From NCBI RefSeq assembly GCF_004010195.1, contig NC_057739.1, positions 5,879,227-5,943,226 of the forward strand: a DNA stretch of 64,000 nt, written 5' to 3'. Below are positions 1 to 52,395 of this stretch, piece after piece (within the stretch, counting starts at the first letter, position 1; each line of letters opens with the position of its first letter). The notes beneath the pieces are model-generated. The model had not been told where the DNA came from. It did not search any database and worked only from the letters and a program-made list of their open reading frames with translations. A program made the position numbers and the translations under genes. The stretch is from Chiloscyllium plagiosum. Lineage: Eukaryota.

Positions 1-307
1 GCACTGTCCCCATGACTTGTCCTACCTGCCCATCTTCCTTCCCACCTATCCACTCCACCCTCCTCTCTGACCTATCACCTTCATCCCCACCCCCATTCAC
101 CTATTGTACTCTATGCTACTTTCTCCCCACCCACCCTCCTCTCATTTATCTCTCCACCTTGCAGGTACTCTGCCTCTATTCCTGATGAAGGGATTTTGCC
201 CAAAACATTGATTTTCCTGCTCCTTGGATGCTGCCTGAACTGCTGTGCTTTTCCAGCACCACTCTAATCTAGAATCTGGTTTCCAGCATCTGCAGCCCTT
301 GTTTTTA
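1..307 (+). mobile_element. Penelope-like element 3' / pseudo-LTR fragment with decayed hammerhead motif
   Basis: C-rich tract followed by CTGATGAAGGGATTTTGCCCAAAACATT (182-209) and the tail gatgctgcctga..gcttttccagcaccactct..ccagcatctgcag. The same tail follows the GIY-YIG remnant at 47145-47850. Confidence 0.75.
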
Positions 308-494
308 CCTAACACTATGGGCAATTTAGTATGACCAATTCACCTGACCTTCACATCTTTTAGATTGTGGGAGGAAACCCACACAAACACAGAGAGAATG
401 TGCAAACTCCACACAGACTGGAGTGGCTGGAATTGAACCCGGGTCCCTGGTGCTGTGAGGCAGCAATGCTAACCACTGAGCCACCGTGCCGCCC
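308..494 (-). mobile_element. HE1/V-SINE (tRNA-derived shark SINE), internally deleted
   Basis: Reverse complement begins GGGCGGCACGGTGGCTCAGTGGTTAGCATTGCTGCCTCACAGCACCAGGGACCCGGGTTCAATTCC (Pol III A and B boxes), followed by V-domain TGTGTGGAGTTTGCACATTCTC. Confidence 0.85.
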
Positions 495-502
495 TTTCAA
501 GT

Positions 503-758
503 AGATTAGATTTTAGATTACATTACAGCTTGGAAACAGGCCCTTCGGCCCAACAAGTCCACACCGACCCGCAGAAGCGCAACCCACCCATGCCCCTACA
601 TTTACCCCTTACCTAACACTACGGGCAATTTAGCGTGGCCAATTCACCTGAAGTGGACATCTTTGGACTGTGGGAGGAAACCGGAGCACCCGGAGGAAAC
701 CCACGCAGACACGGGGAGAACGTGCAAACTCCACACAGTCAGTCGCCTGAGGCGGGAA
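503..758 (-). mobile_element. HE1/V-SINE, 5'-truncated, with CR1-like tail
   Basis: V-domain plus GGGCCGAAGGGCCTGTTTCC tail and (TCTAA)n end on the minus strand. Confidence 0.85.
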
Positions 759-1419
759 GTACCGTTCACTTCTTTCAATTTGTACTTCGTACTTGCTGCT
801 TATATACTCTCTGGATGACCTGTCGTCAGAACTGGGCAAAGTTATTTGTTAGAGAGGTACTAAACAAGTGATAGGGCAGTGTTAGGAGAAAGCGCAGAAA
901 GGGATGTCTGTGATTGGGTGGGAAACTGGTGAGAATAAACTGCAAAATACTATATGGTGCAAGTTCAAAGGAAGTGGGAGTTGTATGGGGAAAGAACCAA
1001 AAGTTGTGTCTAGAAGAGGGGTGACTCACTGCAATCTAAAAGCAAAAAGTAGCACAAAATGCAAAGGAACATAATGGAGGTTACAGTCTGAAATTGTCAA
1101 ATGCAAAATGAGTCTAGAACAGACCTGGGCACTTTACCGCCCGCGGGCCATATCCGGCCCTTTGGTCGTTCCTGTCGGCCCGCACGAGGTCAATCTTAAA
1201 TTAGAACATAAATGAAAAAGTATTTACGCCACGCACGCAATACAACTGTGTTGCTTTTGTTTTGAAAAGGATCCTTTTTTTTATTTATGTATGGACATAC
1301 ATGCATGTGTATGTGCATGAACAGCTAAAAGTGATGCTTGCTGGCTAGCCCTCAAAATGGTACTTTTGCATTGTATTATACATCAGGAAGTGTTGTGTAA
1401 GTCAGTATTAAAAATTATT

Positions 1420-1476
1420 GAGAGAAAGTGAGGGCTGCAGATGCTGGAGATCAGAGCTGAAAATGTGTTGCTGGAA
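1420..1476 (-). mobile_element. Penelope-derived short element inserted in the hAT transposase, running into an assembly gap
   Basis: gagaaagtgagggctgcagatgctggagatcagagctgaaaatgtgttgctggaa matches the ends of the copies at 4204, 17312-17531 and 18042. Confidence 0.8.
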
Positions 1477-2015
1477 NNNNNNNNNNNNNNNNNNNNNNNN
1501 NNNNNNNNNNNNNNNNNNNNNNNNNNNNNNNNNNNNNNNNNNNNNNNNNNNNNNNNNNNNNNNNNNNNNNNNNNNNNNNNNNNNNNNNNNNNNNNNNNNN
1601 NNNNNNNNNNNNNNNNNNNNNNNNNNNNNNNNNNNNNNNNNNNNNNNNNNNNNNNNNNNNNNNNNNNNNNNNNNNNNNNNNNNNNNNNNNNNNNNNNNNN
1701 NNNNNNNNNNNNNNNNNNNNNNNNNNNNNNNNNNNNNNNNNNNNNNNNNNNNNNNNNNNNNNNNNNNNNNNNNNNNNNNNNNNNNNNNNNNNNNNNNNNN
1801 NNNNNNNNNNNNNNNNNNNNNNNNNNNNNNNNNNNNNNNNNNNNNNNNNNNNNNNNNNNNNNNNNNNNNNNNNNNNNNNNNNNNNNNNNNNNNNNNNNNN
1901 NNNNNNNNNNNNNNNNNNNNNNNNNNNNNNNNNNNNNNNNNNNNNNNNNNNNNNNNNNNNNNNNNNNNNNNNNNNNNNNNNNNNNNNNNNNNNNNNNNNN
2001 NNNNNNNNNNNNNNN
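1477..2015. other. assembly gap (N run)
   Basis: Run of N. Confidence 1.
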
Positions 2016-3317: not shown

Positions 3318-3570
3318 TGACCAGATATCCTAATCTAATCTAGTCCCATTTGCCAGCACTTGGCCCATACCCCTCTTAAACCCTTCCTATTCAAATACCT
3401 ATCCAGATGCCTTTTAAATATTGTAATTGTACCAGCCTCCACCACTTTCTCTGGCAGCTCACCACCCTCTGTATGAAAAAGTTACCCTTTATGTCCCTTT
3501 CAAATTTTTCCCCTCACCCTAAATCTATGCCCTCCAGTTCTGAACTCTCCACCCCAGGGAAAAGACCTTT
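3318..3570 (-). mobile_element. CR1/HER1 LINE 3' end fragment
   Basis: Reverse of the CR1 ORF2 C-terminus and 3'UTR seen in the other copies (ctaatctagtcccatttgccagcacttggccc...). Confidence 0.75.
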
Positions 3571-4203
3571 GGTATTTACTAATATTTCTAGCATGTTCAC
3601 TTTTAGTTTCTAGCAGCTGCAGTATTTTGCTTTTGTTTCTTTGCAGTAAAGAAACAGGCGCTAATGTTCGATTGCAACATGCTCCCACACTCCCCTTACC
3701 GTCATCCTCTCGAGATATCATACTAATCCTTTCCCAAGTATTTATCGAGCTAATTCTGAATTACAGGACAATAGGATTGTCAGTCCATCGTGCCGGTGTT
3801 ATGTTTTTGGATGTGCTATCGAATTAGACCTCTGCACTTTCCCACAGTCCTGCAAAGATTCCCCTTCATGTATTTATTCAATTCCCTTTTGAAAGTTATT
3901 TTTGAATCTGCTTCAAACACACTAAGGCAGTAAAATCCAAATGCATGCTTTAAAATATATTCATGGGATGCACCTGCAGGCCACCATTTACTGCCCATCT
4001 CAAACTGCCTATAAGAAAGTGGTGATCAGTTGCTATCTTGGACCACTGCAGTCTGTGTGGCTGTGGCTGTGTACTGTTGGGGGAGGGGGGGAGGTGGTGT
4101 TGGGTCTTTGTTTTAATTCAGTGACGGCAAAAAGAAAGTTAGTGTTTCAGGTCAGAAAGATGTCTGACCTGAAGCAGAACTTGCAGGTGGTGTTCCCATT
4201 TGT

Positions 4204-4356
4204 GGAGAAAGTGAGGTCTGCAGATGCTGGAGATCAGAGATGGAAATGTGTTGCTGGAAAAGCGCAGCAGGTCAGGCAGCATCTAGGGAACAGGAGAATC
4301 GACGTTTCGGGCATTAGCCCTTCTTCCGCGCTTTTCCAGCAACACATTTCCATCTC
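4204..4356 (-). mobile_element. Palindromic Penelope-derived short element with 14-bp TSD
   Basis: Flanked by GTGTTCCCATTTGT at 4190-4203 and 4357-4370. Long arm plus a short inverted arm. Inserted in an older L2/CR1-like fragment (~4140-4590, minus). Confidence 0.85.
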
Positions 4357-4980: not shown

Positions 4981-5313
4981 TTAGAATCATAGAATCCCTA
5001 CAGTGTAGAAACAGGCCATTCAGCCCAACAAGTCCACATCGACCCTCAGAGAAGTAACCCACCCAGACACATTCCCCCAACCCTACCACTCTACATGTAC
5101 CCCTGACTAATGCACCTAACCTACACATCCCTGAACACTATGGACAATTTGTCATGGTCAATTTACCTAACCTTCCCATCTTTGATTTATAGGAGGAAAC
5201 CAGAGCACCCGGAGGAAACCCACACAGACACAGGGAGATGGTGCAAACTCCACACAGTCTCTGGAGGCTGGAATTGAACACTGGTCCCTGGTGCTGTGGG
5301 ACAGCAGTGCTAA
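4981..5313 (-). mobile_element. HE1/V-SINE
   Basis: B-box-like head, V-domain and CR1-derived tail on the minus strand. Confidence 0.8.
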
Positions 5314-11845: not shown

Positions 11846-11926
11846 TATCACATGTGCTAGATGGAGTTGGATATTTTATTATCCACTATTGCTCACAGGT
11901 AGAACTTGTACCTCTGTATATCTCAC

Positions 11927-17002: not shown

Positions 17003-17311
17003 AAAACTGGACTCAATGGAATTCGGAGGTAAACTCTCTTCTCGCTGGAGTCATACTTGGCACATAGGAAGATGTTGGCACATGTTGGAGGTCAGTCATC
17101 TCAGCTCTAGGACATCTCTGTAGGACTTTCTCAGGATAGTGTCCTAGGTCCAACCATCTTCAGCTGCTTCTTCAATGACCATCCCTCCATAAGGTCAGAA
17201 GTGGGGATGTTTGCCAATGATTGATCAATGTTCAGCACCGTTTGCAATTCCTCAGAAACTGAAGCAGCTAGTGTTCAAACGCAACAAGATCTGGACAAGA
17301 TTCAGGCTTGT

Positions 17312-17531
17312 GCTGAAAATGTGTTGCTGGAAAAGCGCAGCAGGTCAGGTAGCATCCAAGGAACAGGAGAATCGACGTTTCGGGCATAAGCCCTTCTTCA
17401 GGAAGGGCTTCGGGCTTATGCCCGAAACGTCGATTCTCCTGTTCCTTGGATGCTGCCTGACCTGCTGCGCTTTTCCAGCAACACATTTTCAGCTCTGATC
17501 TCCAGCATCTGCAGTCCTCACTTTCTCCTCG
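17312..17531. mobile_element. Palindromic Penelope-derived short element with long TSD and hammerhead motif
   Basis: ~80-bp near-perfect inverted arms. AAGATTCAGGCTTGTGCTGA duplicated at 17297-17316 and 17532-17551. Minus strand carries CTGAAGA-A-GGGC-TTAT-GCCC-GAAACGTC (17401-17374). Confidence 0.88.
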
Positions 17532-18041
17532 AAGATTCAGGCTTGTGCTGACAAGTGGCAACTAACAGTCACACCACGCAAATGCCAGGCTATAAATATC
17601 AACATCAAGAGACAATCTAATCTCTACCCATTCAATGGTGTAACCATCACTGAATCCCCCACTACCAACATCCTGGGCGGGTTACCATTTACCAGAAACT
17701 CAACTGGACTCACCATTCTCTGATTCTATGAATTAGACATAAACACAATATTTGCAAGAGTAAGTCAGAGACTAGGAATGCTGCAGCAAGTAACTCCTTT
17801 TCTGAGTTCCCAAAGCCTGCCCACAATCTACAAGGCACAGGTGAGGAGTGTGATAGAATCCTCTCCACTTGCCTGGATGGGTGCAGCTCCAACAACATGC
17901 AAGAAGCTTGACACCATCCGGGATAAAGCAGCCCATTTAATTGGGACCACATCCACAAAACATCCACTCCCTCTCCCACTTACACACTGCTACTGAGTGT
18001 ATGATCTACTACATAAAAATCCTTACAGAATATCTTCCAAG

Positions 18042-18195
18042 AGGAGAAAGTGAGGACTGCAGATGCTGGGGATCAGAGCTTAAAAATGTGTTGCTGGAAA
18101 AGCGCAGCAGGTCAGGCAGCATCAAAGGAGAAGGAAAATTGACGTTTCGGGCATAAGCCCTTCTTCAGGAATGAGGAGGGTGTGCCAAGCAGGCT
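18042..18195 (-). mobile_element. Penelope pseudo-LTR fragment with intact hammerhead core
   Basis: Minus strand CATTC-CTGAAGA-A-GGGC-TTAT-GCCC-GAAACGTC (18173-18141), followed by the family tail. Confidence 0.82.
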
Positions 18196-23336: not shown

Positions 23337-24515
23337 CTGGAATGACAGGATTGGGAATAACTAAAAGTGCAGCACAATCCAACTCAAATTACTGTCAAGA
23401 TTCTGTCATGTTGACGAGGTCCCATAACTCCTGGCACAATGGCTGATAATCTTAGGAAACCAGCTGGATTGAGTTCATAAAACGGCGTCACTGCCCTGTG
23501 GCTGAAAATTTGTCACAAAGCCCACTTCTGGTCGTTGCTGGGCTGTTCCATCTTCCAAACCCATTATCTTTACCAGCTAGAAGGACAAGGGAAGCAGATA
23601 GATGGGAACACCACCTGCAAGTTCCTCTCCAAGCCGCCCACCATCTGGACTTGGAAATGTATTGCCATTCTTTCAGGATCACTTGGTCAAAGTCCTGGAA
23701 TTCACTCCCTAAGGTCATTGTGGGTCAAACTACACCATACGGACTGCAACGGTTCAAGACGGCAGCTCACCACCACCTCCAGGTGTAATTAGGGATGGGC
23801 AAGAAACACTGGGCGAGTCAATAATACCAGGAATGAATTTTATAAAAGGCATGTTTTGATAGAGGGTATGATCAGGTTTGACTAATGTCCAACAGTTTGT
23901 GATGGTATGTGACTCAAGAGGGATCTGTTCTGCTCCATTTCTCTTGGAGTGTGTTAGGGCTGCCTGCAACTGAAGAGACACAAAATAGCCAACAGCTAGT
24001 TCCCACTAGCCTTGCAGAAAATGGCTGACAGTAATTATAACCTTGGGAAAAAAACATTTGTTAAAGGTAGCTTCCACAAGAAGGGCAACAGCCAGTCTGT
24101 ATAAACAAGGTTACTGAGCTCAGATAGAACATGCAGCTGTAAAACGATAAGAACATTTCACAGTAATTAGTTTTTTTCAACTATTCATACTATTAAGAGT
24201 AGGCTCTAGTTAAATATTCTTCAGATAATCAGAGATAGATTATAGTATTTATAGATACACATATAAACAAACTCCAAAAATCACTAAAAACATTAGAAGA
24301 AAATTTTCAAATACAAATGTGGAAGATAGTAAAGCTGCCTCATCTTATCATTAAAGAAGTGCCTTGCACACACATTTAGAAACAAATTGCTCACAACTTA
24401 TTAGCTAAAGAATGCTAACCATAGGGATAGACATAAAACTTCACACATAACTTACTTCTAGTAGAACCAATATTATGAATTTTATAGCAGTTAGTAAGAA
24501 CTTGCTTTGTAATTG

Positions 24516-25359: not shown

Positions 25360-27355
25360 ACATCTTAAAGAATGTCCATACAACAGAGGAGGAAGTGCTG
25401 GGTATCTTAAAACGCAGAAAGGTGGATATGATCAGGATCTGATCAGGTGCACCCGAGAACTCCATGGGAAGCTAGGGAAGTGACTGCTGGGCCCCCATTT
25501 GACTCATCAATAGTCACAGATGAGGTGCTGGAAGACTGGAGGTTGGCTAATGTGGTGCCACTATTTAAGAAAGGTGGTAAGGAAAAGCCAGAGAACTATA
25601 GACCGGTGAGTCTGACATCAATGGGGAGGTGCCAGTTGTTGGAAGGAATCATGGTGGACAGGATTTAGATGCATTTGGAAAGACAAGGACTGATTAGAGA
25701 TAGTCAACATGGCTTTGTGCATGGGAAATCATGTCTCACTAACTTGATTGAGTTCTTTGAAGAAGTAACAAATAGGATTGATGAGGGCAGAGTGATGGAC
25801 GCGCTCTATATGGACTTCAGTAAGGCGTTCAGCAAGGGTACTCATGATAGACTGGTTAGCAAGTTTATCTCACATGGAATACAGGGAGAACTAGCCGTTT
25901 GGATACAGAACTGGCTCGAAGGTAGAAGACAGAGGATGGTGGTGGAAGGTTGCTTTTCTGATTGGAGGCCTGTGACCAGCAGTGTGCCACAAGGATTGGT
26001 GCTGGGATCACTGACTTTCGTCATTTATATAAATGATTTGGATGTGAACATAGGAAGTATAGTTACTAAGTTTGCAGATAACATCAAAACTGCAGGTGTA
26101 GTGGATGGTGAAGAAAGTTACCTCACAGATCACTCCTGTTGTGCTCAGATGTGCGAATGGGCTGAGGTGTGGCAGATAGGGTTTAATTTAGATAAATGTG
26201 AGGTGCTGCATTTTGGAAACGCAAATCAGGGTAACACTTATACACTTAACGGTAAGGCCCTGGGGAAACTTGCTGAACAAAAAGAGCTTGGTGTGTAGGT
26301 TCAAAGTTCCTTGAAAGTGGAGTTGCATGTAGATAGGATAGCGAAGAAGGCTTTTACTATGCTTTCCTTTATTGGTCAAAGCATTGAGTATAAGAGTTGG
26401 GAGGTCATGTTGTAGCTGTACAGAACATTCCTCACTTTTGCCTAGTTGATTTTAACCTTACTGTGAATCCTCTTGCAAGGATGCCTACTTTGAAGAAGTT
26501 CTCCTCCTCTCTCCACAAGAATCTCAGTGAGTCTCTCACTGCAACCCCCAGGTCATCTCCTCTGCCCTGAAGCTCTTACTCTTTGCTACCTTCTCCCACC
26601 CTCCTCTCTGACCTATCACTTTCATCCCCACCCCCATCCACCTATTGTACTCTTTCCTACCTTCTCCCCAGCACCCCCTTCCCATTTATCTCTCTACCCT
26701 GGAGGCTCACTGCCTTCATTCCTGATGAAGGGCTTTTTCCCAAAACGTAGATTTTCCTGCTCCTCGGATGCTGCCTGACCAGCTGTGCTTTTCCAGCACC
26801 ATCCAAGGTACAGGACATTGGTTAGGCCACTTTTGGAATATGGCGTGCAATTCTGGTCTCCTTTCTGTCAGAATGATGTTGTGAAACTTGAAATGGTTCA
26901 GAAAAGATTTACAAGGATGTTACCATGGTTGGAGGATTTCACCTATAGGCAGAGCTGAATAAGCTAGGGCTATCTTCCCTGTAGTGTTGGAGACAGAGGG
27001 GTGACCTCATAGAGGTTTATAAATCATGAAGGGCATGGATAGGGTAAATGGACCGGGTCTTTTCCCTGGGGGTTGGGGAGGTGGGGGTGGGGGGTAGCGG
27101 AGGACGTCCAGAACTGGAGGGTATAGGGGGAAAGATTTAAAAAGCATCTAAGGAGCATTTTTTCACGCAGAGGGCAGTGGGGGTATGGAATGAACTGTCA
27201 GAGGAAGTGATGGAGGCTGGTACAATTACAACATCTAAAGGGAATCTGGATGGGTATATGAATAGGAAGGGTTTAGAGGGATATGGACCAAGCACTGGAC
27301 CAGTTGGACTAAAGGGTCTGTTTCCATGCTGTACATCTCTAATCTAATGACTCTA
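25360..27355 (+). mobile_element. CR1/HER1 LINE RT region (pseudogene)
   Basis: ORFs 25447-25668 and 25669-26298: DWRLANVVPLFKKG, QHGFVHGKSCLTNL, DFSKAF, VPQG, FADN. Confidence 0.92.
26430..26807 (+). mobile_element. Penelope fragment inserted in CR1, with decayed hammerhead motif
   Basis: Flanked by GTACAG(A/G)ACATT duplication. CTGATGAAGGGCTTTTTCCCAAAACGTAG at 26722-26750. Confidence 0.78.
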
Positions 27356-28039: not shown

Positions 28040-28369
28040 CTGTACAAAAGGGAAAGAGAGCATTGTAATTTGAACCTAATCAAAATGTGGAACTCACAGT
28101 TACACACTTAAAACAAAAAGAGACAACAAGCCAGAGAATGAGATTCTCTCAAACCTTCGTAAGCTGTATCTGCAATAACTTTCACACACCTTTGTGAGAA
28201 AATGAGAACGGGGCAGTGGTAGATGTGGTGGATTTGGATTTCCACAAGGCAATGATATGGTGCCACGTAAAAGGCTATTGCACAGTTCAGGAGCTCGTGG
28301 CACTGGAGGTACTGCATTATCAGATTGAGGATTGGCTAACACAAGACAAAAGAACAGTCAAGAATAATA

Positions 28370-28522
28370 AAACAAAGAACTGCAGATGCTGAAGATCTGC
28401 AACAAAAGAAAACAGATATTGCTGCAGAAGGGTCACTAGACTCGAAATGTTAACTCAGTCCCTCTCTCCAAAGATGCTGTCGATGTGCTGAGTTTCTCTA
28501 GCAATTGCTGTTTTTGCTTCAG
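28370..28522 (+). mobile_element. Penelope-derived inverted short element, family B
   Basis: CTGCAGA-A-GGGTC-ACTA-GACTC-GAAATGTT-AACT at 28422-28455, with inverted flanks. Confidence 0.65.
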
Positions 28523-28756
28523 GTAATGACACTTTTTCAGATTGGAAAGATACAATAAATGGAGTTCCACAACGTTCAGTCCTATGACTGTCATTATTTT
28601 CAATCTATATTAATGACTTGAAAGGGGGGCATAGTGCAATGTACCTAAATTTAATAATGACAGAAATAGGTGGGAGGGCACTTTATGATAAGGACATAAA
28701 GAATCTGCAAATGGCCATAGATACAACGAGTCAAAGACTTGACAAATGAAATTTAA

Positions 28757-32166: not shown

Positions 32167-32809
32167 GAATTTAATGTAAAAAAGTGTGAGGTCATACGCT
32201 TTGGTAGGAAAAATCATAATCAAGACTATTATCTAAAAAGAGAAAGAGCCCAAAGCACAGAAGGATCAATGTGTTCTTGTTCATGATACACAATGTTAGC
32301 ACACAGGTGCAGCAAGCAATTAAGAAGGAAAATGGAATATTGTTTTTTCTTCTAAAGGATTTGAGTTTAAGAATAGGATAGGACATCGGTGGGGCTGTAC
32401 CTGGAGTAAATTTAGGTTCCATATTTAAAACAGGATTTGCTGGTGTAGGAAGCAGTTAAAAAGAAATTCATTCCACAGATTCCTGGGATGAAGGAGTTTT
32501 CAAAAATGGTTAAATGGTTTTTGGGGAAAATCAATCACGATCTTATCAAATGGTGGGACAAGTTTGAGGGGCCAAATGGCTGACTGCTGCTCCTATTTCT
32601 CATTCTCCTGAGTCTTAACCTGTGCCTCTTAGTTCTGGACATTCCTATAAGAAATATCCACCCTGTCAAGTCCCCAGGATGCATGTGTTTTACATTGAGA
32701 AGCACAGAATGACTAAACAAAAAGATTCAAAGATTAAACATGTCAAATTATTTAAGGGGATGATAGAAAAATGCAACAGGGGGGAGGGAAAGCATCGGCA
32801 TGATAATAG

Positions 32810-32982
32810 TCATGGTTTGGAGGTGCCAATGTTGGACTGGGGTGTGCAAAATTAAAAATCACACAACACCAGGTTTTAGTTCAACAGGTTTTAATTGGAA
32901 GCACCTAATGAAGGAGCGGCGCTCCAAAAGCTAGTGCTTCTAATTAAACTTGTTGGACTATAACCTGATGTTGCGATTTTTT
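32810..32982 (+). mobile_element. Palindromic short element, family C, with 12-bp TSD and decayed hammerhead motif
   Basis: TSD GCATGATAATAG at 32798-32809 and 32983-32994. CAC-CTAATGA-A-GGAGC-GGC-GCTCC-AAAAGCTA-GTG at 32902-32936. Confidence 0.8.
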
Positions 32983-35448
32983 GCATGATAATAGGGTATT
33001 AAGAGGTTTGTGTGTGGTAGAAACATCAGCATTGATTCAGTAGGCCCAAGTGGCCGGTTTTTGTGCTACTAGACTGTTATAAACCAGAGCAGCTACTTTA
33101 GCTGGAGCAGGTCAGTGGTTATAAACAGATTACACCACACTATGCTTTAGCAGTTACACAGCAACAGAATTACACCTCCATCCCCCACCCCACAACTATC
33201 TCCTCAGTGATGCAGACATTTCTAGGTCATAAAAAGAACCACTCAAATGCCTGAAGACTATTACAGAACCATTGGTGATAGGCACAGAAACATTTTCTCA
33301 TGCCTGTCAAGTCCCAAACATTGCATAAAACTGCATGGATCATATAGCCAATAAACAGGTTGTTCAGCCCATAGAGCTGCTAGTTGTTTCTTCCTAGTCA
33401 CTTTTCTCTTGTATACATGTCTAATTTCCTTTTGAAAGCATCCAAGTGATATACCTCAACCACTTCCTATAGGAAGTATAAATGCAAAGGAACAAATTGC
33501 TCATTTACTCATTAGGTTTATTAACGATTTTGTATTTACAGATCCGAGTTTTGAATCCTCCCAGAAGGTGAAACCTCTTCTCCACACCTACCCTGCAATT
33601 GCTATAACAGTTTAAGGAGCTCAACAGGCCACTCTTATGAAATAGCCAAACAATTCAATCTTTCCAAATTGCTGGGGTCCAAAGACTCTAGCAATCAAAC
33701 AGGCTGGGATCTTCTTATGGTGGACAGGCAGAGTGTCAGAACTGAAGCCACTCAGTCAACCACCTCTTTATTTATAACAGAGTACAAGGCTCACTCCACT
33801 CTTGTAATCACAGTATTGTTTTAGAATAGCTTAATCCTTCAAGATATTCATAGTTCCAGGCATTCTTTCATTATCTTCAATGGGGCAGGGTGTTGAAGCT
33901 GAGAGGAAAATGCCTGGCTCTCTTCTGACTGGCTGATAATAGTGGCATCAAAACTATTGGCAAGTTGCCAGTTACAGTCGAGCTATGGATAAATGAGAAA
34001 GAAAAAGAGCTCTTCAAACCCACACACCCCATATTCCGTCACCCACAGGCGATTAAATATTTAATCCACATTGGGGGGAGAGGGGGTCGTGTGTGAGAGA
34101 TGGGGCTGAAGGGTGAAATGGTATAGAATCACCCAATTTCTCTGGCTACCAATTTCTCTGGATCGAGAACAAGAGGACACAGGTGCAAAGTCATTGGTTA
34201 AAGAAATAACAACATTTCTTTATTGATGTTGACTCATTTGGAGTGAACATGTTGACTCATTTAGATTGATGAAAACAGATTTAGCTGAAGCACTGAATAG
34301 AGAATTCTGCAGCTTAATTGTCTAATTACGGAGAGAAGGTAACACTGGGTGATGGTGGTCATTTGGAGAACCAGCACAGATACAATAGGCTCATCTTACA
34401 CTGCAACACTTCTGTGATTATGATTTAATATGGGGTAAAAGAATATAATTCTGCTCAATAGAGTGAGAAGTGTTAGGTTAAGCACATTCATTTCCATAAC
34501 ACAGCACTGTGAGGGGTGACATTGTAAACTTTTCACTGTACTTCTGTACTTGAGTACACATGACAATAAGCCTAATTTTAATTCTAAACTTGATCTGAAC
34601 TGTGTTGCTACCTGGGCAGTATATTGCCCCACCTCCCTCTGCATATACAAACATAAAAGCCATCCAAAGTCTGCAGTCCATCTCTTTACCCACATCCCAG
34701 TTTTTCTAATTTTATCTACCTCCGTGCCACAGAGAATCCAGGTTCTCGACCTTTTTGCTGATCTCTAATCTCTTCCACACACCCCTGCTCTGTCCTTTCG
34801 TGCACCGTTCACTCCTCAAACACAGTTTCTTTGTCACAAGCTACTCCTTCGATCACTCAGCCTCTGCAACTTGCTCAGCATCACTGTCAACTCAACCATC
34901 TTCCTTCAAATCTCCCCCCGCATCTGTATCCGTCTTGGTTTGAGCTGAAAATGGCTGAGGCGAAAACCAGGGATCATGGGGTCTCCACTGCACTCAGCAG
35001 CTCTTTCCCTTGTCACCAAATGGGTCCAGCGACTTGGCTGTTACCATCTCCACTCACAGACAAAGGGGTTTCAAATGTGGGAGAAACAACTTGTCGATTA
35101 TTGTCATCAACTTTAGGAGACGAGAATAAAGTCAGTTTCATTTCAGGGAAAAATACAAACACCCCATCGGATCGAAGAGCCGACATGGATTTAAATCATT
35201 CGGATGTGAAATGTTGACTGTGGGGAAAGAGACAGAGCCACAGATCAGACAGAGCCCTGTTCTTCGCCCCGCAGTCTCTCTCTCTCTCTCTGTCTCCTTG
35301 CTACCCCCATCATTACGATTCCACCATCATCTCCAACTCCCAGCCTGACTCTTCCCAGTCATCCCCATCTCCCTCTGCTCTCCAGCGGACCCCACACCCT
35401 CTCCCCTGGCCCCCCCATCTCCCACCCCCGACCTCACCCAGGCCTCAC

Positions 35449-35520
35449 CAGGCATATCTGATATTCCAGTCGTTTCCGCGCCTCTTCGCTCTGCTTCTTC
35501 TTCCGAGTGAAGAGCATCAT
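35449..35520 (-). CDS. LRSAM1: LRSAM1 (E3 ubiquitin ligase) first coding exon: [24 protein letters not shown]
   Basis: 72 nt, donor GTGAGG. Human N-terminus [24 protein letters not shown]. The nine exons sum to 750 nt in frame, and the gene continues toward or beyond the window start. Confidence 0.96.
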
Positions 35521-36134
35521 CTCGGGCCTAGCGAAGTTCCAAATTCCCCGCGGCCGGACAACAGCGGAGGCGACGAGGCAGCACCCCGGGGGCGGAGAAG
35601 CAGCAAGACAACGGCCCAGTCTCGAGGCGGGGCTCCTTTCCAGTGTCCCCGGGCCGGTCTGCAGCCAGAAAGCTCCCGCTAGATCCTCGTCCCAAACAGC
35701 GAGCGACAGCTCTCCAACTTCCACCTCCTATCACTCCTCCAGAGCTAACGAGTGTGCCGAGTGAGGCAAGAGGCACCGCCGATACCAACGGCATCAAACA
35801 GAAAACAAGGGGTGTCACTAACCGCGCACCTCCCAAAAAATCAACAAGTGTCGCAAGACGACAGCCCGGGGAACGGCAACATCAAGTTACAACACTGTGC
35901 AAACGTTCACTATGATTTTTCACTTGATTATTTACTGGATGTTTGAAACGTAGTTGACATTCGGATTTTCAAGTTGTGATTGTTTTGGTTTTACGAGCAA
36001 AACATTTGCGCAAGCGCAGTGCATCGGAAGTAGGCATGCACTGGTTACTGCCATATTTCTGAGCATGCTCAGTCAGGGTTAGCGCATGTGTATTTCTGGA
36101 TTTGTGCAAGGCTTGATAGCAGCAAGTAACAATG

Positions 36135-36298
36135 TGGAGGAGACGATGTAGAACTAGGGTGGACAAAGTTAAAACTACACAACACCAGGTTATAGTTCAA
36201 CAGTTTGTTTGGAAGCATGAATAGCGCTCCGAATACTAATGCTTTCAAATAAACCTGTTGGTCAACAACCTGCTATTGTGTGACTTTTAAACTCTGTC
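36135..36298. mobile_element. Older family C palindromic element within the bidirectional promoter
   Basis: acaaagttaaaactacacaacaccaggttatagttcaacag..aaacctgttggtcaacaacctgctattgtgtgacttttaaactctgt, homologous to 32810-32982. Confidence 0.75.
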
Positions 36299-36364
36299 GT
36301 CACTGGCCACATTCAAAATGGCGCTCTCCCCGTGCCCTTGGAAACCTCGCGAGAGTTTACTGGG

Positions 36365-36402
36365 TATATAAAGCTGCGAGAGTCAGCGCTGTTTCTCTTC
36401 AG
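36365..36402 (+). promoter_or_regulatory. RPL12: RPL12 core promoter: TATA box and polypyrimidine TCT/5'TOP initiator
   Basis: TATATAAA at 36365-36372 and TTTCTCTTC at 36392-36400, about 30 nt downstream, as expected for ribosomal protein genes. Confidence 0.8.
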
Positions 36403-36497: not shown

Positions 36498-36534
36498 ATG
36501 CCTCCCAAATTCGATCCCAACGAAGTTAAAATCG
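36498..36534 (+). CDS. RPL12: RPL12 (uL11) coding exon 1: MPPKFDPNEVKI
   Basis: 37 nt, donor GTGTGT. Conserved RPL12 N-terminus. Confidence 0.98.
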
Positions 36535-37140
36535 GTGTGTACGTAATGGATGGGGGAGGCTGCAGGGCCTGGGGTTAGGGGCGGGGGAGGCCATGCGCTT
36601 AGGCCCGGGCACGTGTCCCGTGTGTCAGCGCGGATTCTGGGCCACTGGCTGCACTCCCGGGTAAGTGTGTCTCCGTTCACGGAATGGCAGCAGTTTGAGG
36701 TGTTCCTACTGGTGCTGTTCTGTTCTCAGCTTCAGCTAAGTTTCCTCATTACACTTTTACGATCTGAGATCTTGAATACTCTCTGGGCACACTGTACTAC
36801 CCTTTTATTGTACTTGTAGTTGATGTTTCCTTTTGTTTCCTTTTCAAATTAACAAAAACGCTCGATAAATCCGAGCGTCTGGGTTATTTTGTTTGCGATT
36901 GCTGCTGCACAAAGGCTTGCTGCAGGCTGATTGTCAAACACTTCTGAGTTCTCATGTTTTGTTTCTTTGGATTTGTAAATGGAGGGATGCAGTAAATAGC
37001 ACTAATCCATGGGTGGGATAAAGCAACAATTTTCATTGTAAGAATGTTGCCTTTAGTCTCCTATTCATGTTGTGCAGTGTCCAATTTTGGGCATAGTTCA
37101 GGATTAAGATCAGGTTCTTCACTCGGGCATGTATCTGTGT

Positions 37141-37344
37141 AGTGTGTGGTGCTGGAAAAGTACAGCAGGTCATGCAGCATCCGAGGAGCAGGAAAATCGA
37201 CGTTTTGGGCCGGAGCCCCTGATGAAGGCTTTATGCCCAAAACATCGATTCTCCTGCTCCTCGGATGCTGTCTAACCTGCTGTGCTTTTCCGGGAACACA
37301 CACTCCACTCTGATCTCCAGTATCTGCAGACCTCGCTGTCTCCT
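37141..37344. mobile_element. Palindromic Penelope-derived element in RPL12 intron 1
   Basis: Inverted arms meeting at ~37210-37218. CTGATGAAGGCTTTATGCCCAAAACATC at 37219-37246. Confidence 0.8.
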
Positions 37345-37777
37345 ACGAATCTACGGTATTCTCTTAAAAGCTGTGCATGTATGGCCATGAAGTTGAGATG
37401 AGACTAGGATTGGAAAATTGAATTGAGGGGTTTAGTACAGCTGCAATCTTGTTAATAGTGGAGCAAACTTGAGGGGCTTTGTCGTGTGTACATGTTCTTG
37501 TAGGTCCTGAAATACTTTTGCTAATTCCATCATTCAAGAAAACATAAGGGTCTGTTTCTATGGTGTGACTCTTGACAGTAGTGCTCAATTTTTTTCACTA
37601 CCACACATGTATTGTCTAAGGGCAGCTGATGACTGATATTGCTTTTTCCTTAAACTCAAGATTACTTTTTAAACAATGATGTTTAACTGCAATGAATTTA
37701 ATGTGAACAGACCTGCAAGTTGCTTCTGCTTGGAGTATTTGATTGTCAGGATTTTTTCAGTTGCTGAACTGTTGTAA

Positions 37778-37990
<213 letters not shown>

Positions 37991-38011
37991 TAGTAACCTT
38001 TTTACTTTTAA

Positions 38012-38140
<129 letters not shown>

Positions 38141-39144
38141 TGAAGGGGCATCATTTTTACAGCTGTAAATTTTGTTTAAACCCTATCAGAACAGTGTGTT
38201 CTCAAGAACTAGAGCTATGTATAGCAAAGTAACGTGACTATTGCAAGGTTCAGTTAATGTATCTGAGGTGTTCCAGATACAGCTTTGTTTAGGTCTTGCC
38301 TATTAAGCCGGCCTCCTTGCTTGTGCGTCCTAGGTCAGTTGCCTTTTCCTGCTAAGACATCTGTGTTGCAATATAATATAGCTGGCTTTGGTTATCAATG
38401 TATTTGTGAAATCCTAGGCAATCTAGTCATTATATATTGCAAGAAATGCAACATGTCTTGCATGATGTTTCCCGGGGGTGGTTTATGTTGGGTGTTCCTG
38501 AAGAGACTACAAATCTAATGTAGTATTTGGTTTAGGTTAAAAGACAGGAATCAGTGTGCAGTTTTAAGATGATGCAAACTCTTGAAAGTAACTGGTGATT
38601 TATTTTGAATTTTACATGTGAATACATCAGTCAATCATAAATTGTTATAGTCGATTGGAGCTATTAACCCATAATGTTCTAATATGTATAGAGCAGGTTT
38701 TGGGCTTTGTCATGCAAGTAACCTGGGAAAATGAATTGAGAGCTTGATTTTATTATTCTGATTGAACTCTTGGGTGTTGAGTAAGCCAGACATTGTATGT
38801 GGCTTGAGGTAGTGGAAGCGGTGTAGTACCTGATTATATTTGTTGCAGCTGTCAAGCTGGAAGTTGTGCTTACCAAGCATTTGTTTAGCTTTAACTGTTG
38901 CTTGCACTGGTCAGAATAGTTTTGTTGTGGGTGGAATATATTTAAATCTCCATTTGGATATGGGGCCAATGATCATTCTGAACTACTCTGCAATGTCCAT
39001 TGGACATGGGGGATGTAGCTGAGTAAATAGAGCAAGTGACAGTAGAGTGAAGTGTTGAAGCTAAGAATGTAAAAAGTCTTCCAGTCCTGTTCCAAACTAT
39101 GTTATCATCCAGCACTGACAGCTGTTGTTCTCACTCCTTTTTAG

Positions 39145-39246
<102 letters not shown>

Positions 39247-39356
39247 TGAGAGGGTATGGTGCTTCAGTTTGACCCTTCTGTGCAATGTTGCTTATGATAA
39301 AAAGTTAATTATGCAAGAAGAATGCTTTCTACTTGTCCCTTAAATTCTGTATGCTA

Positions 39357-39510
39357 GAAAACTGCACATCACAGCCTGCCAGGCTCCCATGGGAATTGCT
39401 GGCATTTGATGTAGGTTTGCTTGCTGAGCTGGAAGGTTCATTTCCAGACACATTGGTACCCTCCTAGGTAACATCCTCAGTGGGCCTTGGGCGAAGCATT
39501 TGACTGACTT
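39357..39510 (+). ncRNA. Candidate diverged or degenerate H/ACA snoRNA (SNORA65-like) in RPL12 intron 4
   Basis: Hairpin ACATCA..TGCCAG..CTGGCA..TGATGT (39366-39412). RPL12 hosts SNORA65 in other vertebrates. Canonical H and ACA boxes are not evident. Confidence 0.25.
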
Positions 39511-39687
39511 TTGACTTGTTTCTCTCTCCCTCACTGAACTGCAGAAGTTGTAAATCCCTGCAGTTGAAATCTGAAACTAAATTCGGTCTGCTGTTCTTTG
39601 AGCACTGAATTTTCCTGGCATTGGTTCACTTGGTCTGCTCTTAGGCAGAGGATTCTGTATTGACTAGAGCTGATTTTTGTCTTCCAG

Positions 39688-39774
39688 TCAAACACAGTGG
39701 CAGCATCACCTTCGATGAAGTGGTTGCTATTGCCCGGCAAATGAGGCACCGTTCTCTGGCCAGGGAACTTGCAG
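39688..39774 (+). CDS. RPL12: RPL12 exon 5: (I)[28 protein letters not shown]
   Basis: AG/GTGGGT boundaries, 87 nt. Confidence 0.98.
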
Positions 39775-40309
39775 GTGGGTGCGGACTGTAATGGGTAGTC
39801 TTGTGTATTTTATGTACTTTGGTGTCAAACTTGATTACATCTTTCGGCTAAAGGGTTGACATTTAATGATGTGTTTAAAGGGCTTCCAACTCAACCACCC
39901 AGGATTAACATGGCAGCTGGTGCTTTTGGGCACTTGCTCCTTATTCCACTCCAACCAGTGTTGGTCAGTTTGAGATTTCAGTGTAGAGTGGTGGGGGAAA
40001 TGGGAAGGCTACACTGTTGAAAAATGTGACTGGCACGCATCCTTTGGTGGATGAGCATTGCACTGAATCAGACCTTAAGCCAGTTGGTAAGGCCTTGGTG
40101 CCTCACTTTTTTTATTTACAATAGGATCTGGAAGAAATGTGTGCACATCCATTTTATGAATTCAGGTTTTAATGTGACAGATCTTTCACATTTGATCTGA
40201 AAAACGGTCAAACCTTCAGGGAACAAGTCATGGGTTTAACTTTTTTTGCACATGTAAATACAGCATTTGATAAATTAATGAAAAGACTAAATCTTGCTTG
40301 GAAATGCAG

Positions 40310-40422
40310 GAACTGTGAAGGAGATTCTGGGAACTGCTCAGTCCATTGGTTGCAACATTGATGGCAAACACCCTCACAGTGTGATTGAGGATATCAACCA
40401 GGGCAAGATTGAGGTTCCCTCA
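40310..40422 (+). CDS. RPL12: RPL12 exon 6: (G)[37 protein letters not shown]
   Basis: AG/GTAAGT boundaries, 113 nt. Confidence 0.98.
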
Positions 40423-40508
40423 GTAAGTTTGTTTTTAGATTGCATTGGACTAATTTGATTTCTAACTTGTTTGACCAAATCACTTACTTTCTCTCTTCCT
40501 TCCAACAG

Positions 40509-40535: not shown

Positions 40536-40541
40536 AATAAA
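40536..40541 (+). terminator. RPL12: RPL12 polyadenylation signal AATAAA
   Basis: 21 nt after the stop codon, followed by GT/T-rich downstream sequence. Confidence 0.85.
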
Positions 40542-46545: not shown

Positions 46546-46547
46546 TT

Positions 46548-47144: not shown

Positions 47145-47850
47145 GCCACTACCTGGTTAGGTCCACGCCCCCTAACAACCCACCCTCCCCTGCCACCGCA
47201 GGAATTGCAAAACCTGCGCCCACATCTCCCCCCTCACCTCCGTCCAAGGCCCCAAAGGAGCCTTCCACATCCAAAGTTTCACCTGCACTACCACATTTAT
47301 TTTATCAGTTGCTCCCGATGCGGTCTTCTCTTCTCGCAGTGCTTCAGAGAATATCTCCAGGACATCCGCACCAATCAACCCCATCGCCCTGTGGCCAAAC
47401 ATTTCAACACCCCCTCCCACTCTGCCGAGGACATACAGGTCCTGGGCCTCCTCCATCACCACGCGACACCTGGAGGAAGAATGCCTCATCTTCCACCTTG
47501 GGACCCTTCAACCCCAGGGCATCATTGTGGACTCCACCAAGTTCTCTCATTTCTCCTCCCCCCACCTTACCTCAGTTCCAACCTTCTAGCTCAGCACCAT
47601 CCTCATTACCTGTCCCAACTGTCAATCTTCATTTCCACCTATCCGCTTTACTCTCCTTTCTGACATGACCATTACCTCCACCTCCATCCACCTATTGCTA
47701 ACTTCTCCCCAGACCGACCCCCTCCCATTTATCTCTCCACCCCTGAGGCTCCCAGCCTCATTTCTGATGAAGGGCTTTTGCCCGAAACGTCGATTTGCTG
47801 CTCCTCAGATCTGCCTGACCCGCTGTGCTTTTCCAGCACCACTCTAATCT
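47145..47850 (+). mobile_element. Penelope-like element: GIY-YIG endonuclease remnant plus pseudo-LTR with hammerhead
   Basis: Frameshifted PCHRRNCKTC, IYFISCSRCGLL and FREYLQDIRTNQPHRPVAKHFNTPSHS. CTGATGA-A-GGGC-TTTT-GCCC-GAAACGTC at 47764-47791. Confidence 0.88.
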
Positions 47851-47904
47851 TTACTCTGTGAAGAGAAAGCAGAGTTAGCATTTCAGGTCCAGTTATCTTT
47901 GCTT

Positions 47905-48682
47905 TCTCTCGACAGGTCTTTACAAATCCACATTGTATTTTGGAAATGCAAATCAGAGCAGGACTTCTACAGTTAAATGTTGGGGTCTCGTTACTGAACA
48001 AAGAGACCTTGGAATGCATAGTAGAGTCACAGGCAGATAAGATAGTCAAGAAAACGTTTGATATGCTTTATTGATCAGACCACTGAATATAGGAATTGGG
48101 AGGTCATGTTGTGGCTGTACAGGGGATTTGTTAGGTCACTTTTGGAATATAGTGCACAGTTCTGGTCTCCTTTCTGTCAGAAAGATGCTGTGAAACCTGA
48201 AAGGTTTCAACAAAGATTTACAAGGATGTTGCCTGGGTTGGAGGATTTGAGCTAGAGGGAAGAGGCCGAATAGGCTGGGGCTGTTTTCCCTGGAGCATCA
48301 AAGGCTGAGGGGTGACCTCATAAAGGCTTATAAAATCATGAGGAGCATGGATAGGATAAATAGACAAAGTCTTTTCCCTGGAGTGTGGGAGTCCAGAACT
48401 AGAGGATATAAGTTTAGGGTGAGAGAGGAAAGATATAAAAGAGACGTAAAGGGCAACTTTGTCACGCAGACGGTGGTGTGTATATGGAATGAGCTGCCAG
48501 AGGAAGTTGTGGAGGCTGGTACAACTGCAACATTTAAAAGGTATCTGGATGGGTAAATGAAAATGAAGGGTTTAGAGGGATATGGGCCAAGTGCTGCCAA
48601 ATGGGACTAGATCCGCTGGGATTTCTGTCGGCATGGACTAGTTGTCGGAGGGTCTGTTTCTGTGCTGTACACCTCAATGACT
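47905..48682 (+). mobile_element. CR1/HER1 3' portion
   Basis: ORFs 48058-48255 and 48338-48556 (LEYSAQFWSP, WNELPEEVVEAG). Confidence 0.85.
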
Positions 48683-48990
48683 ATTTAAAATACTTAACCC
48701 CACCAGGATTTATGGGGAATTGAAAGGATGAATTTGACCACTACCCCCTGTATTTGAAACCATACTTCGGCTATACAGTACCTTTTTACTTGTCCTGTTT
48801 ACTACTTTTCATTTCACGTTAAAATATTTGTCTTAAACCCTTAAAAAAATGTCAGTTTTGGCATTAATAAACTAAACAATACTTTTGAATTACTATTGAC
48901 ACCTGGTCCCTAGTTAGGTGTGTAATATGGTGACATCCCCAAATGTATGTTAATTAAATGTCAATGCAACTAGTACCAGAGATTCCTCAC

Positions 48991-49109
48991 CTTCCAATGC
49001 ATCTTTCAGTGGGGTTATAAAGCGATCAAACTCCATCTCTTCCATTGCTGCAAGCACATCAGAGGCACTCAGTGTTTTCCTCTTGCTCTTCATTGCAAAG
49101 TTATTTGCG
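48991..49109 (-). CDS. POLE3: POLE3 coding exon 3: (C)[39 protein letters not shown]
   Basis: ttcctag/gtgagg boundaries, 119 nt. Histone-fold helices. Confidence 0.97.
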
Positions 49110-51875
49110 CTAGGAATATACAAACTTTAATGCACCTCTTTATATTTACACTTGGTACAGCTCTTATTGCATTATCCCATAGATGTAGATCAATTTCTAA
49201 GATCGTTATGGTACTCTTGCAACATTAGACAGACCTTAGAACCAACATAATGCTCCAAGTATAAGTACTGGGCAGACAGAAACCACTTTATTCAACTTTC
49301 ACTAAAACCCTTATACTCAGGCACTTGAATGCATCCATGCTTTAGCTATCCAAAAAATGAATTAATGGTTTCTCTTTCCTCCTCTAAACATCTCCAGGAC
49401 AATGTTTTTTCATTCACTGAATCTGAGCATCATTAATAAAGCTTGCATTGATTGCCCATCACTGACTGCTCTTGAGGAAGTGTTAGTGAGCTGCCTTCTT
49501 GCATACAATTCAATATTTTATCTGCCCTCTGAAATAGCCTTACAAGAGTCAATTACATCATTGTGGGTATGGAGTCTCACATATACCAGGATGGCAGACT
49601 TCCTTCCCAAATAAAGGGCATTTGTGAACCAAACGGGTTTCATGATAATCTAACAGTTTTGCAGTTGTTACTACTGGGACTGGCTCATTACTCCAAATAC
49701 GTTTAACTGAATTTAAATTCCCCAGCTGCTATAGTTTAGAACTCAAATTTCTGGACTGATGAGTTGAAATAAAATTGTATCTCAATGCAGGAATATAATT
49801 TTTAAAAAGCCACTGTCCCTTTAGACTTTACCTCAAAATCTCTGCTGCTGACTCCATGACTTCTACCTAGCTAATACCGCATGCCAAATCAGAACATTTG
49901 CAAGTTTGGCCTCCGATTTGAGCAGAGATGAATTTTAAACACCATATCTAATCCAGTATCAAGATTGATTATTTTTACTCCCATAACACTTCCCATCTCC
50001 AACCCAAATCAGCTTCTCTTATGATTGACATGAATTTGACATCCAGACCCTTGTGCTGGCCTCATGTTCCATTAATGAAACCATCCACAATTTTGTTGCA
50101 AGTATTCTCTTGTACAAAGAACTTTTGCAAGTCCATAACTTGTTTATGTACCATTACATATTTATACATAAGCACACATTTCCATTTCCCTTCCTGAACA
50201 GTGCATTCTCAGACCCTGACATTTTGTGCCACGTATCTTGGTCTGGTAATTATGAATATATTTCATTGAGTTTGAATGACAAGATGGGGTTGAGAGAGTA
50301 AAGACATTGAAAGGTTAATTATGGAGGAAAGAGCTTTGAGTTATCGATAAGCTAAGCCTGGGATAATATATACTTTTGACTGAGGACAGCAATGCACACT
50401 TAGTGTGACAGAGTCAAAAGGGGCAGTAGTTGGGAACAGAATAAGAATGAATATCGTGGATATGGACCATTGAATGAATTTGAAGTAACATTGCCCGCTT
50501 GCCTGTCCCCATGACCCCAATCCTAAAACGTTTTTGATGAATGAGAAACAAAATATTACACATTTGGTAAATCTGTATCAAAGACAGCAAACACTCAAAT
50601 CACTGATAGCAGGTCAGACACCAAATGATCAAAAGACTCGTCAGTTAAGGTTTTGGGTGTCAAATCATTTTCTGAAACTAAAACGATATAGATTAACTGT
50701 ATCCAAGAAACAGAAAAGGGGAAGAGTAAAGAAAAGCATCCACCATCACAATGACTAGGCATATCGGAAACATAATTGAATGCCTTGTAAAGTACTCAGA
50801 TGCAGATCAGAAGACAATATGTGCAGGAAGTGAAATGATGTAGAAACATTTTGGCCCAGATTTTCGGATGGCCTGATAATCGTAGACAGGAGCTAAACAT
50901 AGGGACCCTGCAGAATCCCCATAGTAGTAGCTGCCAAAGGAATTGTCCGAGAAATTAAGATTCCAGTGGGCAATTTCCCCTCTGCTTGTAACCATCCAAA
51001 AGTATCCATTTAATTTCAGAGAATTCAGAGGGTTCTGCTGCAGTTAATAGTTACTGAGGAAATATTGAACTGTTGAATACCTAGTCTAATTCCAGTGTAA
51101 CTATTCAACTGACCCGTCTTACTTCACACTCTCCCAGACCATGACCTAACAGCCCCCTCTATCACTGTGAATTGACACAATCTCCAACATCACACCAACC
51201 CCAGATCCTGCCGTCAGGACCTCTATGCCTAGGATCCAACAGATACCACTGTCTCCACACCCCTCCTCTACTGACAGATCTTATCTCACCCCTACCTCAC
51301 CAGACCAAGTTAAACAGATTTTCAATAGATAGAGTCATATGATGTACACAGGAATGTAGAAGTTAGACCATAACTGGATCAGCCATGATCTTATTGAATA
51401 GCAAAACAGGCTCTATTAGCTTATTCCTGCTTCTAAGTTATATGTTTGCTTAACTTTCCCTGGCGACCAAGACTTCGGAACTATCTGTCTCTCTATCTCT
51501 GCTTCTTAATCAAAAGGGCAAGAAAGGTTTTGAGTTAGCTCTGCTGCTTCATAGTTTGACAAGATTTTTTATTACTCATTTATCAATATATTGGTTTATA
51601 AATTCTAAAGTCAAGAAAATTATGTTCATAGTTATAGCAAACTTCCAATACCCGGAAATTTGCTCACTAATATCCTCCAAGTCAGAAAACTTGAAATGCA
51701 ACCCCCTGCGTGAAAAGGTTGGATAAGCCTGCACTCCATCAATGTGAGTTCTTTTATTAATATCTTCCATCACACAGAGTCCCAAATTTCAAAGTCATTG
51801 TAAGAAAACCAATGATTTCATTACAATTACGGAAAATTGGCCACAGCACTTTAATGCTCACATAGAATTTCTTAC

Positions 51876-51961
51876 CATGAAGTTGCATAAAGAACAAAGA
51901 CACTTGCTGCTCGGGATATTGCACTGCGTGCTTCCTTTGAAACATTCACTCCATCTGGAAG
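51876..51961 (-). CDS. POLE3: POLE3 coding exon 2: LPDGVNVSKEARSAISRAASVFVLYATS
   Basis: ctcttag/gtaaga boundaries, 86 nt. Confidence 0.97.
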
Positions 51962-52265
51962 CTAAGAGAATAAATGCATTCATCCAATTGTACGCTCTCA
52001 AGTATAGAGACAAACTAGCTTTTGGGTATTAGTAAATTACAAACAGAACATTATTTATTATATAGCCAACATGCTTTAAGGAAGTTACTACTTTTTAATT
52101 GGGGTGTTAACAAAGAAGAGTGTGTTCCAGAACTTGAACATCCTCTGATAACCAATTTCAAACTGAATGTGACAGCAATGCGAAGTGCACCCCTTTATTA
52201 GTTATTCAAGTAACCTCGCCAGGTAATCAAAACTGCATTTATTCAAATTATCCTTACTAATAGAA

Positions 52266-52395
52266 ACAGTTCTGGAGAAGGGTCGCTGGACTCAAAACGT
52301 TAACTCTGCTTTCTCTCTACAGAAGCTTCCAGACCTGCTGATTTTCTTCATTAAATTTGTTTTTGTTTCAGATTTTTAGCGTCTATTCGTTGTTT
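52266..52395 (+). mobile_element. Penelope-derived element, family B, with hammerhead-like fold
   Basis: AGTT-CTGGAGA-A-GGGTC-GCTG-GACTC-AAAACGTT-AACT at 52268-52305. Confidence 0.7.

Follow-up and report, generated by a model that had tools for sequence, protein, structure and literature searches.

Probable decayed 3′ ends of Penelope-like elements with minimal hammerhead motifs in a 64-kb stretch of the Chiloscyllium plagiosum genome

A stretch of 64,000 nucleotides from the shark Chiloscyllium plagiosum (assembly GCF_004010195.1, contig NC_057739.1, positions 5,879,227 to 5,943,226 of the forward strand; hereafter the window, with positions counted from its first letter) was analysed for short dispersed repeats with the layout of a hammerhead ribozyme. 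The results indicate, with a probability of roughly 0.88, that these repeats are 3′ end modules (pseudo-long terminal repeats, pLTRs) with a minimal type I hammerhead, derived from at least three families of endonuclease-bearing Penelope-like elements (PLEs), cut short near the motif, often folded back, and decayed. The families are designated A, B and C. As an endonuclease open reading frame (ORF) lies directly upstream of the motif at 47764, family A is the end of a protein-coding PLE.

The first-pass annotation of the window named 11 sites, and the repeats that it described are present at all of them. For comparison with dinucleotide shuffles, the motif was written as a descriptor consisting of CTGANGA, any base, a helix II of at least 4 bp, GAAA, a palindrome and H. 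With no mismatches, the descriptor is found at three sites in 64 kb and in none of 60 shuffles; with at most one mismatch, at four sites (shuffle mean 0.07, maximum 1); and with at most two, at eight sites (mean 1.7, maximum 4; 25 shuffles). The motif is far beyond chance. Profiles built from the copies added two pieces (1422–1476 and about 47855–47916), which brings the total to 13 insertion sites, or about one per 5 kb, and the annotated picture of dense Penelope-type minimal type I motifs that are often intronic was confirmed. Two candidates of a looser first scan, 22762 (+; one mismatch) and 30692 (−), were rejected, as no family profile matches them. Three of the named positions, 4301, 17374 and 18141, mark H17 in copies on the minus strand; the corresponding C3 positions are 4328, 17401 and 18168, respectively. 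The copies are as follows:

1–306 (+): 3′ end of a family A PLE (subtype A1), with 3′ untranslated region (UTR), decayed hammerhead (C3 182) and tail; it continues past the window start
1422–1476 (−): family A tail interrupted by an N run, found by profile match and absent from the first-pass annotation
4204–4356 (−): fold-back stub of family A whose core (C3 4328) is clipped at U4; target duplication of 13–14 bp at 4190 and 4357
17312–17530 (−): family A fold-back stub in an LRSAM1 intron, with an intact core, 17401(−), in sense orientation inside the hairpin; 82-nt arms 99% complementary; target duplication of about 20 bp at 17297 and 17532
18040–18176 (−): family A stub in the same LRSAM1 intron as 17401, also in sense; intact core (C3 18168), with G1.1>A and no stem I
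26596–26805 (+): family A (A1) 3′ UTR and decayed hammerhead (C3 26722), antisense in an LRSAM1 intron
28365–28527 (+): fold-back stub of family B in which the junction clips the 5′ core box
32810–32983 (+): family C fold-back stub, core with two changes; 12-bp target duplication at 32798 and 32983
36133–36309 (+): old family C fold-back relic in the promoter shared by LRSAM1 and RPL12
37143–37343 (+): within RPL12 intron 1, an old fold-back stub of family A whose core (C3 37219) has decayed
47182–47547 (+): broken end of a PLE ORF, split over two frames, with a CX4CxxC linker and GIY-YIG endonuclease
47548–47858 (+): 3′ UTR and pLTR of the same element, with an intact minimal hammerhead (C3 47764) and a predicted cut after 47791
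47855–47916 (−): short decayed family B fold-back stub, found by profile match and likewise absent from the first-pass annotation
52264–52389 (+): family B stub with a 4-bp stem I and a 5-bp helix II; A6>G and G12>A in the core (C3 52272)

The short family B stub at 47855–47916 directly adjoins the long family A copy at its 3′ end, where it stands in place of the A tail.

The endonuclease relic of family A ends about 220 nt upstream of the intact motif. It bears a C-terminal GIY-YIG domain with internal cysteines, of which eight residues around YIG are missing, and the sequence upstream of 47145 consists of N. Its linker, CHRRNCKTC, has the form CX4CxxC (Neptune type) and agrees with the CX2-5CxxC definition in the available text of PMC8557442. 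Single frames of the relic gave no match in Pfam, and a word-based protein search with one frame found none either. A phmmer search with the relic returned 19 proteins, among which GIY-YIG was found in 11 of the 17 scanned, and these align back to both frames; the two top rows were dismissed as unrelated repeat proteins. A whale-shark protein (P0039) that has reverse transcriptase (RT), then linker and GIY-YIG in one ORF aligns to the relic with an E-value of 1e-13. A zebra-shark relative (P0040) ends in LMKGLRPKRQ, which is similar to the LMKGFCPKRR that the 47764 motif would encode (compared by eye). P0040 and another protein, P0017, continue past the stop of the endonuclease and into the pLTR, with C-terminal letters that agree with a translated hammerhead; these extensions are likely gene-calling artefacts.

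The extra A after position 9, followed by G10.1-C11.1, occurs in all 10 parsed copies. There is no helix III, and the palindromic tetramer 15.2–16.2 is ACGT or AGCT in seven of these copies and the CpG-type variant ACAT or ATGT in the other three. The extra A had been entered as a caveat in the first-pass annotation, but it is a published hallmark of PLE minimal hammerheads (PMC4209133, in the part available). The claim that all three families preserve the core is overstated for the window: it is intact at three of the 11 named sites, 17401(−), 18168(−) and 47764(+), all in family A (three of its seven named sites), and decayed at the other eight. The copies at 182 and 37219 combine G12>A with an ACAT tetramer, 26722 carries G12>A together with a mismatch in helix II, and 4328 lost U4 at its fold-back junction. 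In family B, 52272 reads CTGGAGA, again with G12>A, and 28422 reads CTGCAGA (the first letters come from the inverted arm) with the tetramer ATGT; family C copy 32905 reads CTAATGA with G12>A. G12>A, found in five of 10 aligned copies, fits the annotated CpG-type decay of the defective copies. Stem I of family A comprises 2 bp (C-G and U-A) followed by U.U; position 47763 was read as C in 590 of 606 RNA reads, from a set of 1835 reads mapped to 47145–47870 out of 12,955,460 records of a poly(A) single-cell library. The weakness of this stem, another earlier caveat, is a known feature, as a 2-bp helix I has already been published (PMC4209133, available text). Stem I of family B has 4 bp in one copy. 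The 5′ strand CAC of the family C stem is indistinguishable from the end of the inverted arm and therefore cannot serve as separate evidence. Families A and B have a common 3′ tail, with the family A profile matching 52268–52342 at an E-value of 4e-6.

Fold-backs were found at seven of the 13 sites (4301, 17374, 28422, 32902, 36225, 37219 and 47891), and clear target duplications of 12–20 bp at three of the 10 sites tested. Since both arms at 4301 carry two letters that are absent from three other young copies, they appear to come from one template. The arms of 37143–37343 differ at three of four bases of loop II (TCCG versus TTAT); an origin of these arms from two templates was considered on this basis, old age being the alternative, but it is unproven given that 12 of 70 aligned bases differ overall and a tail variant is common to both arms. 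The direct arms extend through the cut site, which argues that most stubs were copied from RNA uncut at that hammerhead.

In both family C fold-backs, the turn lies no more than one base from the predicted cut site. In the insert at 32810–32983, the inverted arm begins at position 1.1, the predicted cut site, only this arm carries the tail, and the whole forms a single long hairpin whose end loop is the hammerhead core. Such junctions could be a record of ribozyme cleavage, in which the inverted arm would be the 3′ cleavage product and the finished insert would extend stem I from 3 to about 50 bp around the core. If so, intact family C members would be pre-folded hammerheads across shark introns and promoters, and the junctions would preserve traces of cleavage that took place in vivo as PLEs transposed. 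This is improbable, however: the 3-bp stem I itself provides microhomology for turning at this point, turns at the cut site occur in only two of the seven fold-backs here and in one of 14 in other contigs, and both local family C cores are damaged.

The behaviour of the fold was further examined outside the window, in metagenome contigs scanned with a core pattern of the family A type, which yielded 122 loci with 86 distinct motifs. Among the 86 motifs, the stem I positions left free by the pattern are Watson-Crick in 71, 75, 67 and 44 cases, compared with shuffle means of 58, 33, 30 and 23, and pairing drops to chance at positions 5–6. In 30 loci hand-picked for a short loop II, 53 double-changed cells were counted against 16.9 expected from shuffling (0 of 500 shuffles). 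A model (R1) from the 30 loci placed its eight top-ranked matches at seven of the named sites (E-values of 8e-9 to 0.04). An endonuclease match on the same strand lies at most 250 nt upstream of the motif, or overlaps it, in 30 of the 122 loci (any match, 36; 600 nt of upstream sequence available, 56).

Several points weigh against the PLE reading. The covariation figures come from contigs of other organisms chosen by the family A pattern, and relatedness among them inflates the numbers. In this genome, the evidence is in keeping with compensation but thin, with about four independent double changes (pairs 10.3, 10.4, 15.2 and 1.1) among the three families. The annotated covariation of the helices is strong in related motifs elsewhere and in the window is limited to three families. 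For family A, the R1 model is in part circular, and it did not recover 37219, 28422, 32905 and 36225; the family B and C patterns gave no match in viral contigs. None of the four named family B and C copies in this window has an intact core, each with at least two changes, and conservation of the core in these families would have to be deduced from damaged copies. No ORF linked to either family was found in the window; the tail is the sole link of B to A, and C connects to PLEs solely through motif layout and insertion form. The RT lies out of view, as the sequence upstream of the relic is N, and the Neptune-type call is based on the linker; an RT is present in the whale-shark homologue. Finally, a target duplication was not found at seven of the 10 sites tested.

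If the repeats are PLE ends, the source elements would be transcribed through the pLTR, and the PLE protein would nick the DNA and start reverse transcription within its RNA near the tail, leaving a one-sided tail, as shown for the anole element (PMC11167929, available part). Reverse transcription may often stop or turn near the hammerhead, with the new strand priming itself to produce the mirror arm; self-priming was proposed in the accessible text of PMC3846280. Selection on the fold would act in the source elements, which would explain why the helices differ between families in a compensated way, and there cleavage by the hammerhead is probably slow and takes place in dimers or with protein assistance. 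The dispersed copies would be passengers, mostly unable to cut, in which the CpG sites, C11.1-G12 and ACGT, are the earliest to decay.

The annotation had proposed that the window holds several non-autonomous Penelope derivatives. In this case, the short units would be true mobile families (SINE-like or monomeric retrozyme-like) with an RNA of their own starting just before the hammerhead and mobilised in trans by PLE protein. Many copies indeed start only a few bases away from the core (17401, 37219, 32905, 4328 and 28422), and non-long terminal repeat (non-LTR) retrozymes are reported as PLE derivatives, including one in a chondrichthyan (10.64898/2026.07.22.740005, as far as the available text goes). 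RNA depth over the 47764 element also changes abruptly: it reaches about 86 over the ORF, stays at 2–15 in the UTR and is 372–880 at the motif, with the step at 47745–47769 and 220 reads with mixed flanks before 47760, and a step of the same sign is present in contigs from two DNA runs. However, this roughly tenfold rise from ORF to motif is likewise expected if stubs dominate, and it is taken to mean that stubs starting near the motif do. Junctions differ among the seven fold-backs, the two family C copies excepted; the copies at 182, 26722 and 47764 continue into UTR or ORF, family A reaching the endonuclease ORF itself; and no head-to-tail hammerhead array was found among the seven tandem-repeat rows of the window, where the copies are solo or inverted, whereas retrozymes are defined by tandem units. 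In addition, the stubs show the inverted pLTR, one-sided tail and target duplication of ordinary PLE insertions (PMC3846280, PMC8557442, available parts). Thus, the non-autonomous origin is unlikely, though it is the most serious competitor of insertion by ordinary PLEs.

A much smaller chance is given to the idea that the intronic copies include active ribozymes with host pre-mRNA as their target. The intact cores 17401(−) and 18168(−) lie 767 nt apart in the LRSAM1 intron between exons 18544–18410 and 13442–13350, in sense with the gene, and could be imagined as a dimer. Folding of 18200–17290, however, gives a probability of 0.0 for helix II of 17401, which lies within a hairpin of −167 kcal/mol, the antisense arm of which is made first; the crossed stem I of the two copies forms no stable duplex (+0.6 kcal/mol), and 18168 is without G1.1. 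On these grounds, a dimer in cis was rejected, and the two intronic cores are predicted to be inert. The same G1.1>A change breaks stem I of 18135–18175, which had been proposed as a cleavage substrate and is therefore unsuitable. Among the 1835 RNA reads, no pile-up of read starts or ends was found at the cut site of the 47764 copy, which is a weak test given that the poly(A) library is fragmented. The PLE hammerhead of the anole depends on protein, and reads ending at its cut site were absent (PMC11167929, available part). Slighter still is the chance that the hammerhead appearance is a coincidence in a repeat that resembles the motif. Rfam hammerhead families (clan CL00010) gave no match at any named site up to an E-value of 5, folding z-scores were weak for two of four 45–49-mers (−1.2 and +1.1), and the best fold of 47756–47800 pairs the core with the cleavage-site strand. 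Against this stand the enrichment of the descriptor, the stem I pairing in the 86 motifs, the double changes in the 30 loci, the endonuclease beside 30 of the 122 loci, the match of the motif to the published consensus (PMC4209133, available part), and its place directly behind the endonuclease. The sole Rfam hammerhead row, HH9 at 23955–24035, scored 19.4 bits against a cut-off of 52 and was dismissed as chance level, and Rfam microRNA rows at 17350–17455 merely reflect the fold-back hairpin.

The window is vertebrate-type DNA (CpG observed/expected ratio of 0.29) with abundant relics of CR1-type long interspersed nuclear elements, and two host genes were mapped in it:

11918–35520 (−): LRSAM1, nine mapped coding exons corresponding to residues 1–253 of 725
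36499–40500 (+): RPL12 (uL11), end approximate

The exon at 11918–12064 matches Chiloscyllium plagiosum LRSAM1 at 94%, with lower identity to LRSAM1 of other sharks. The two genes lie head to head, with starts at 35520 and 36499. Six of the 11 named sites fall in introns between mapped exons, five in LRSAM1 (17374, 18141, 26722, 28422 and 32902) and one in RPL12 intron 1 (37219). Sites 182 and 4301 are probably intronic too, because residues 254–725 of LRSAM1 fall beyond position 1. Site 36225 lies in the shared promoter rather than in an intron, and exon mapping in the window found no host exon around 47764 and 52268. The family C relic at this promoter (36133–36309) lies about 90–260 nt before a pyrimidine-rich stretch near 36395, the likely RPL12 start. 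Other vertebrates have small nucleolar RNAs in RPL12 introns; none was found by Rfam at 36499–40500 up to an E-value of 5.

Three further features were observed. A relic of a hAT transposase with the C-terminal dimerisation domain (2029–2888, +; Pfam E-value, 9e-7) adjoins the N run and the family A tail near the window start. A GC-rich tandem array of a 33-nt unit occupies 54367–55145, with about 24 copies and a higher-order period of 359 nt. On the minus strand, an open frame of 548 codons (60093–61739) consists mostly of about 13.6 copies of a 93-nt repeat, each encoding 31 residues; it has no match in Pfam and is probably a large exon of a minus-strand gene.

According to the available part of PMC4209133, the hallmarks of PLE minimal hammerheads are an extra base between positions 9 and 10.1, a G10.1-C11.1 pair and a palindrome, with the consensus CUGANGAH-G..C-GAAAN-palindrome-NUH; such motifs cut weakly, only as dimers or with protein help (also PMC11167929). 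Metazoan PLEs are described there as forming, in one genome, several families that covary, most copies being solitary and truncated, with thousands in coelacanth and Xenopus. The copies in the window share CUGANGA and GAAA (both intact in three family A copies), the extra base, G10.1-C11.1, the palindromic 15.2–16.2, H17 and, as seen in families A and B, a short helix I, as well as the several divergent families, the solo truncated copies and the opposite-strand pairs. In Fig. S3 of the same paper, the motif of Acropora Neptune has the GGGC helix start and the ACGU of family A, and 2-bp helices I and AGCU tetramers occur as well. Family A, with its 2 bp and U.U, is at the short end for helix I, like the motifs of Culex, Oikopleura and some Drosophila. 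Stem I and tetramer of family C resemble published PLE motifs of shrimp and turtle. The density of 13 sites per 64 kb is higher than that implied by the genome counts of PMC4209133, which took intact motifs only. Cartilaginous fish are not among the hosts in Table S1 and Fig. S3 in the form available, and a literature search, which covered few subscription papers and the scope of which excluded Repbase and Dfam, found no paper on shark PLE hammerheads; supplements may list shark elements.

In the accessible text of PMC8557442, the CX2-5CxxC linker is a character of the Neptune and Nematis clades that Penelope/Poseidon lack. The linker of family A is like that of Neptune-clade PLEs, and the assignment by linker would fit Nematis as well. 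The insertion unit of PLEs is described, in the parts available of PMC8557442 and PMC3846280, by 5′ truncation, an adjacent inverted copy and a one-sided tail, and the units of PMC3846280 have inverted arms with a palindromic junction and duplications of 8–10 bp. In contrast, the units here consist of the pLTR alone and have duplications of 12–20 bp. Non-LTR retrozymes likewise have a type I hammerhead and a PLE origin and are reported in one chondrichthyan, but they comprise at least two head-to-tail units, each with a hammerhead (10.64898/2026.07.22.740005, available text), while the shark copies are solo or inverted. The Poseidon element of Anolis has the pLTR hammerhead and tail in common with family A, but belongs to another clade and has no linker; its activity has been measured, whereas the shark motifs are known from their sequence (PMC11167929, available part). 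Its cleavage is protein-assisted and, according to the same text, not needed for insertion in vitro.

Thus, the window adds a new host lineage and no new mechanism: this is ordinary biology in a new host, of a class already described in many animals, and the copies listed are mostly dead. The in vivo role of PLE hammerheads is still open according to the available parts of PMC8557442 and PMC11167929, and a shark genome with several families offers a rich sample for locating the points, with respect to the ribozyme, at which reverse transcription halts or turns.

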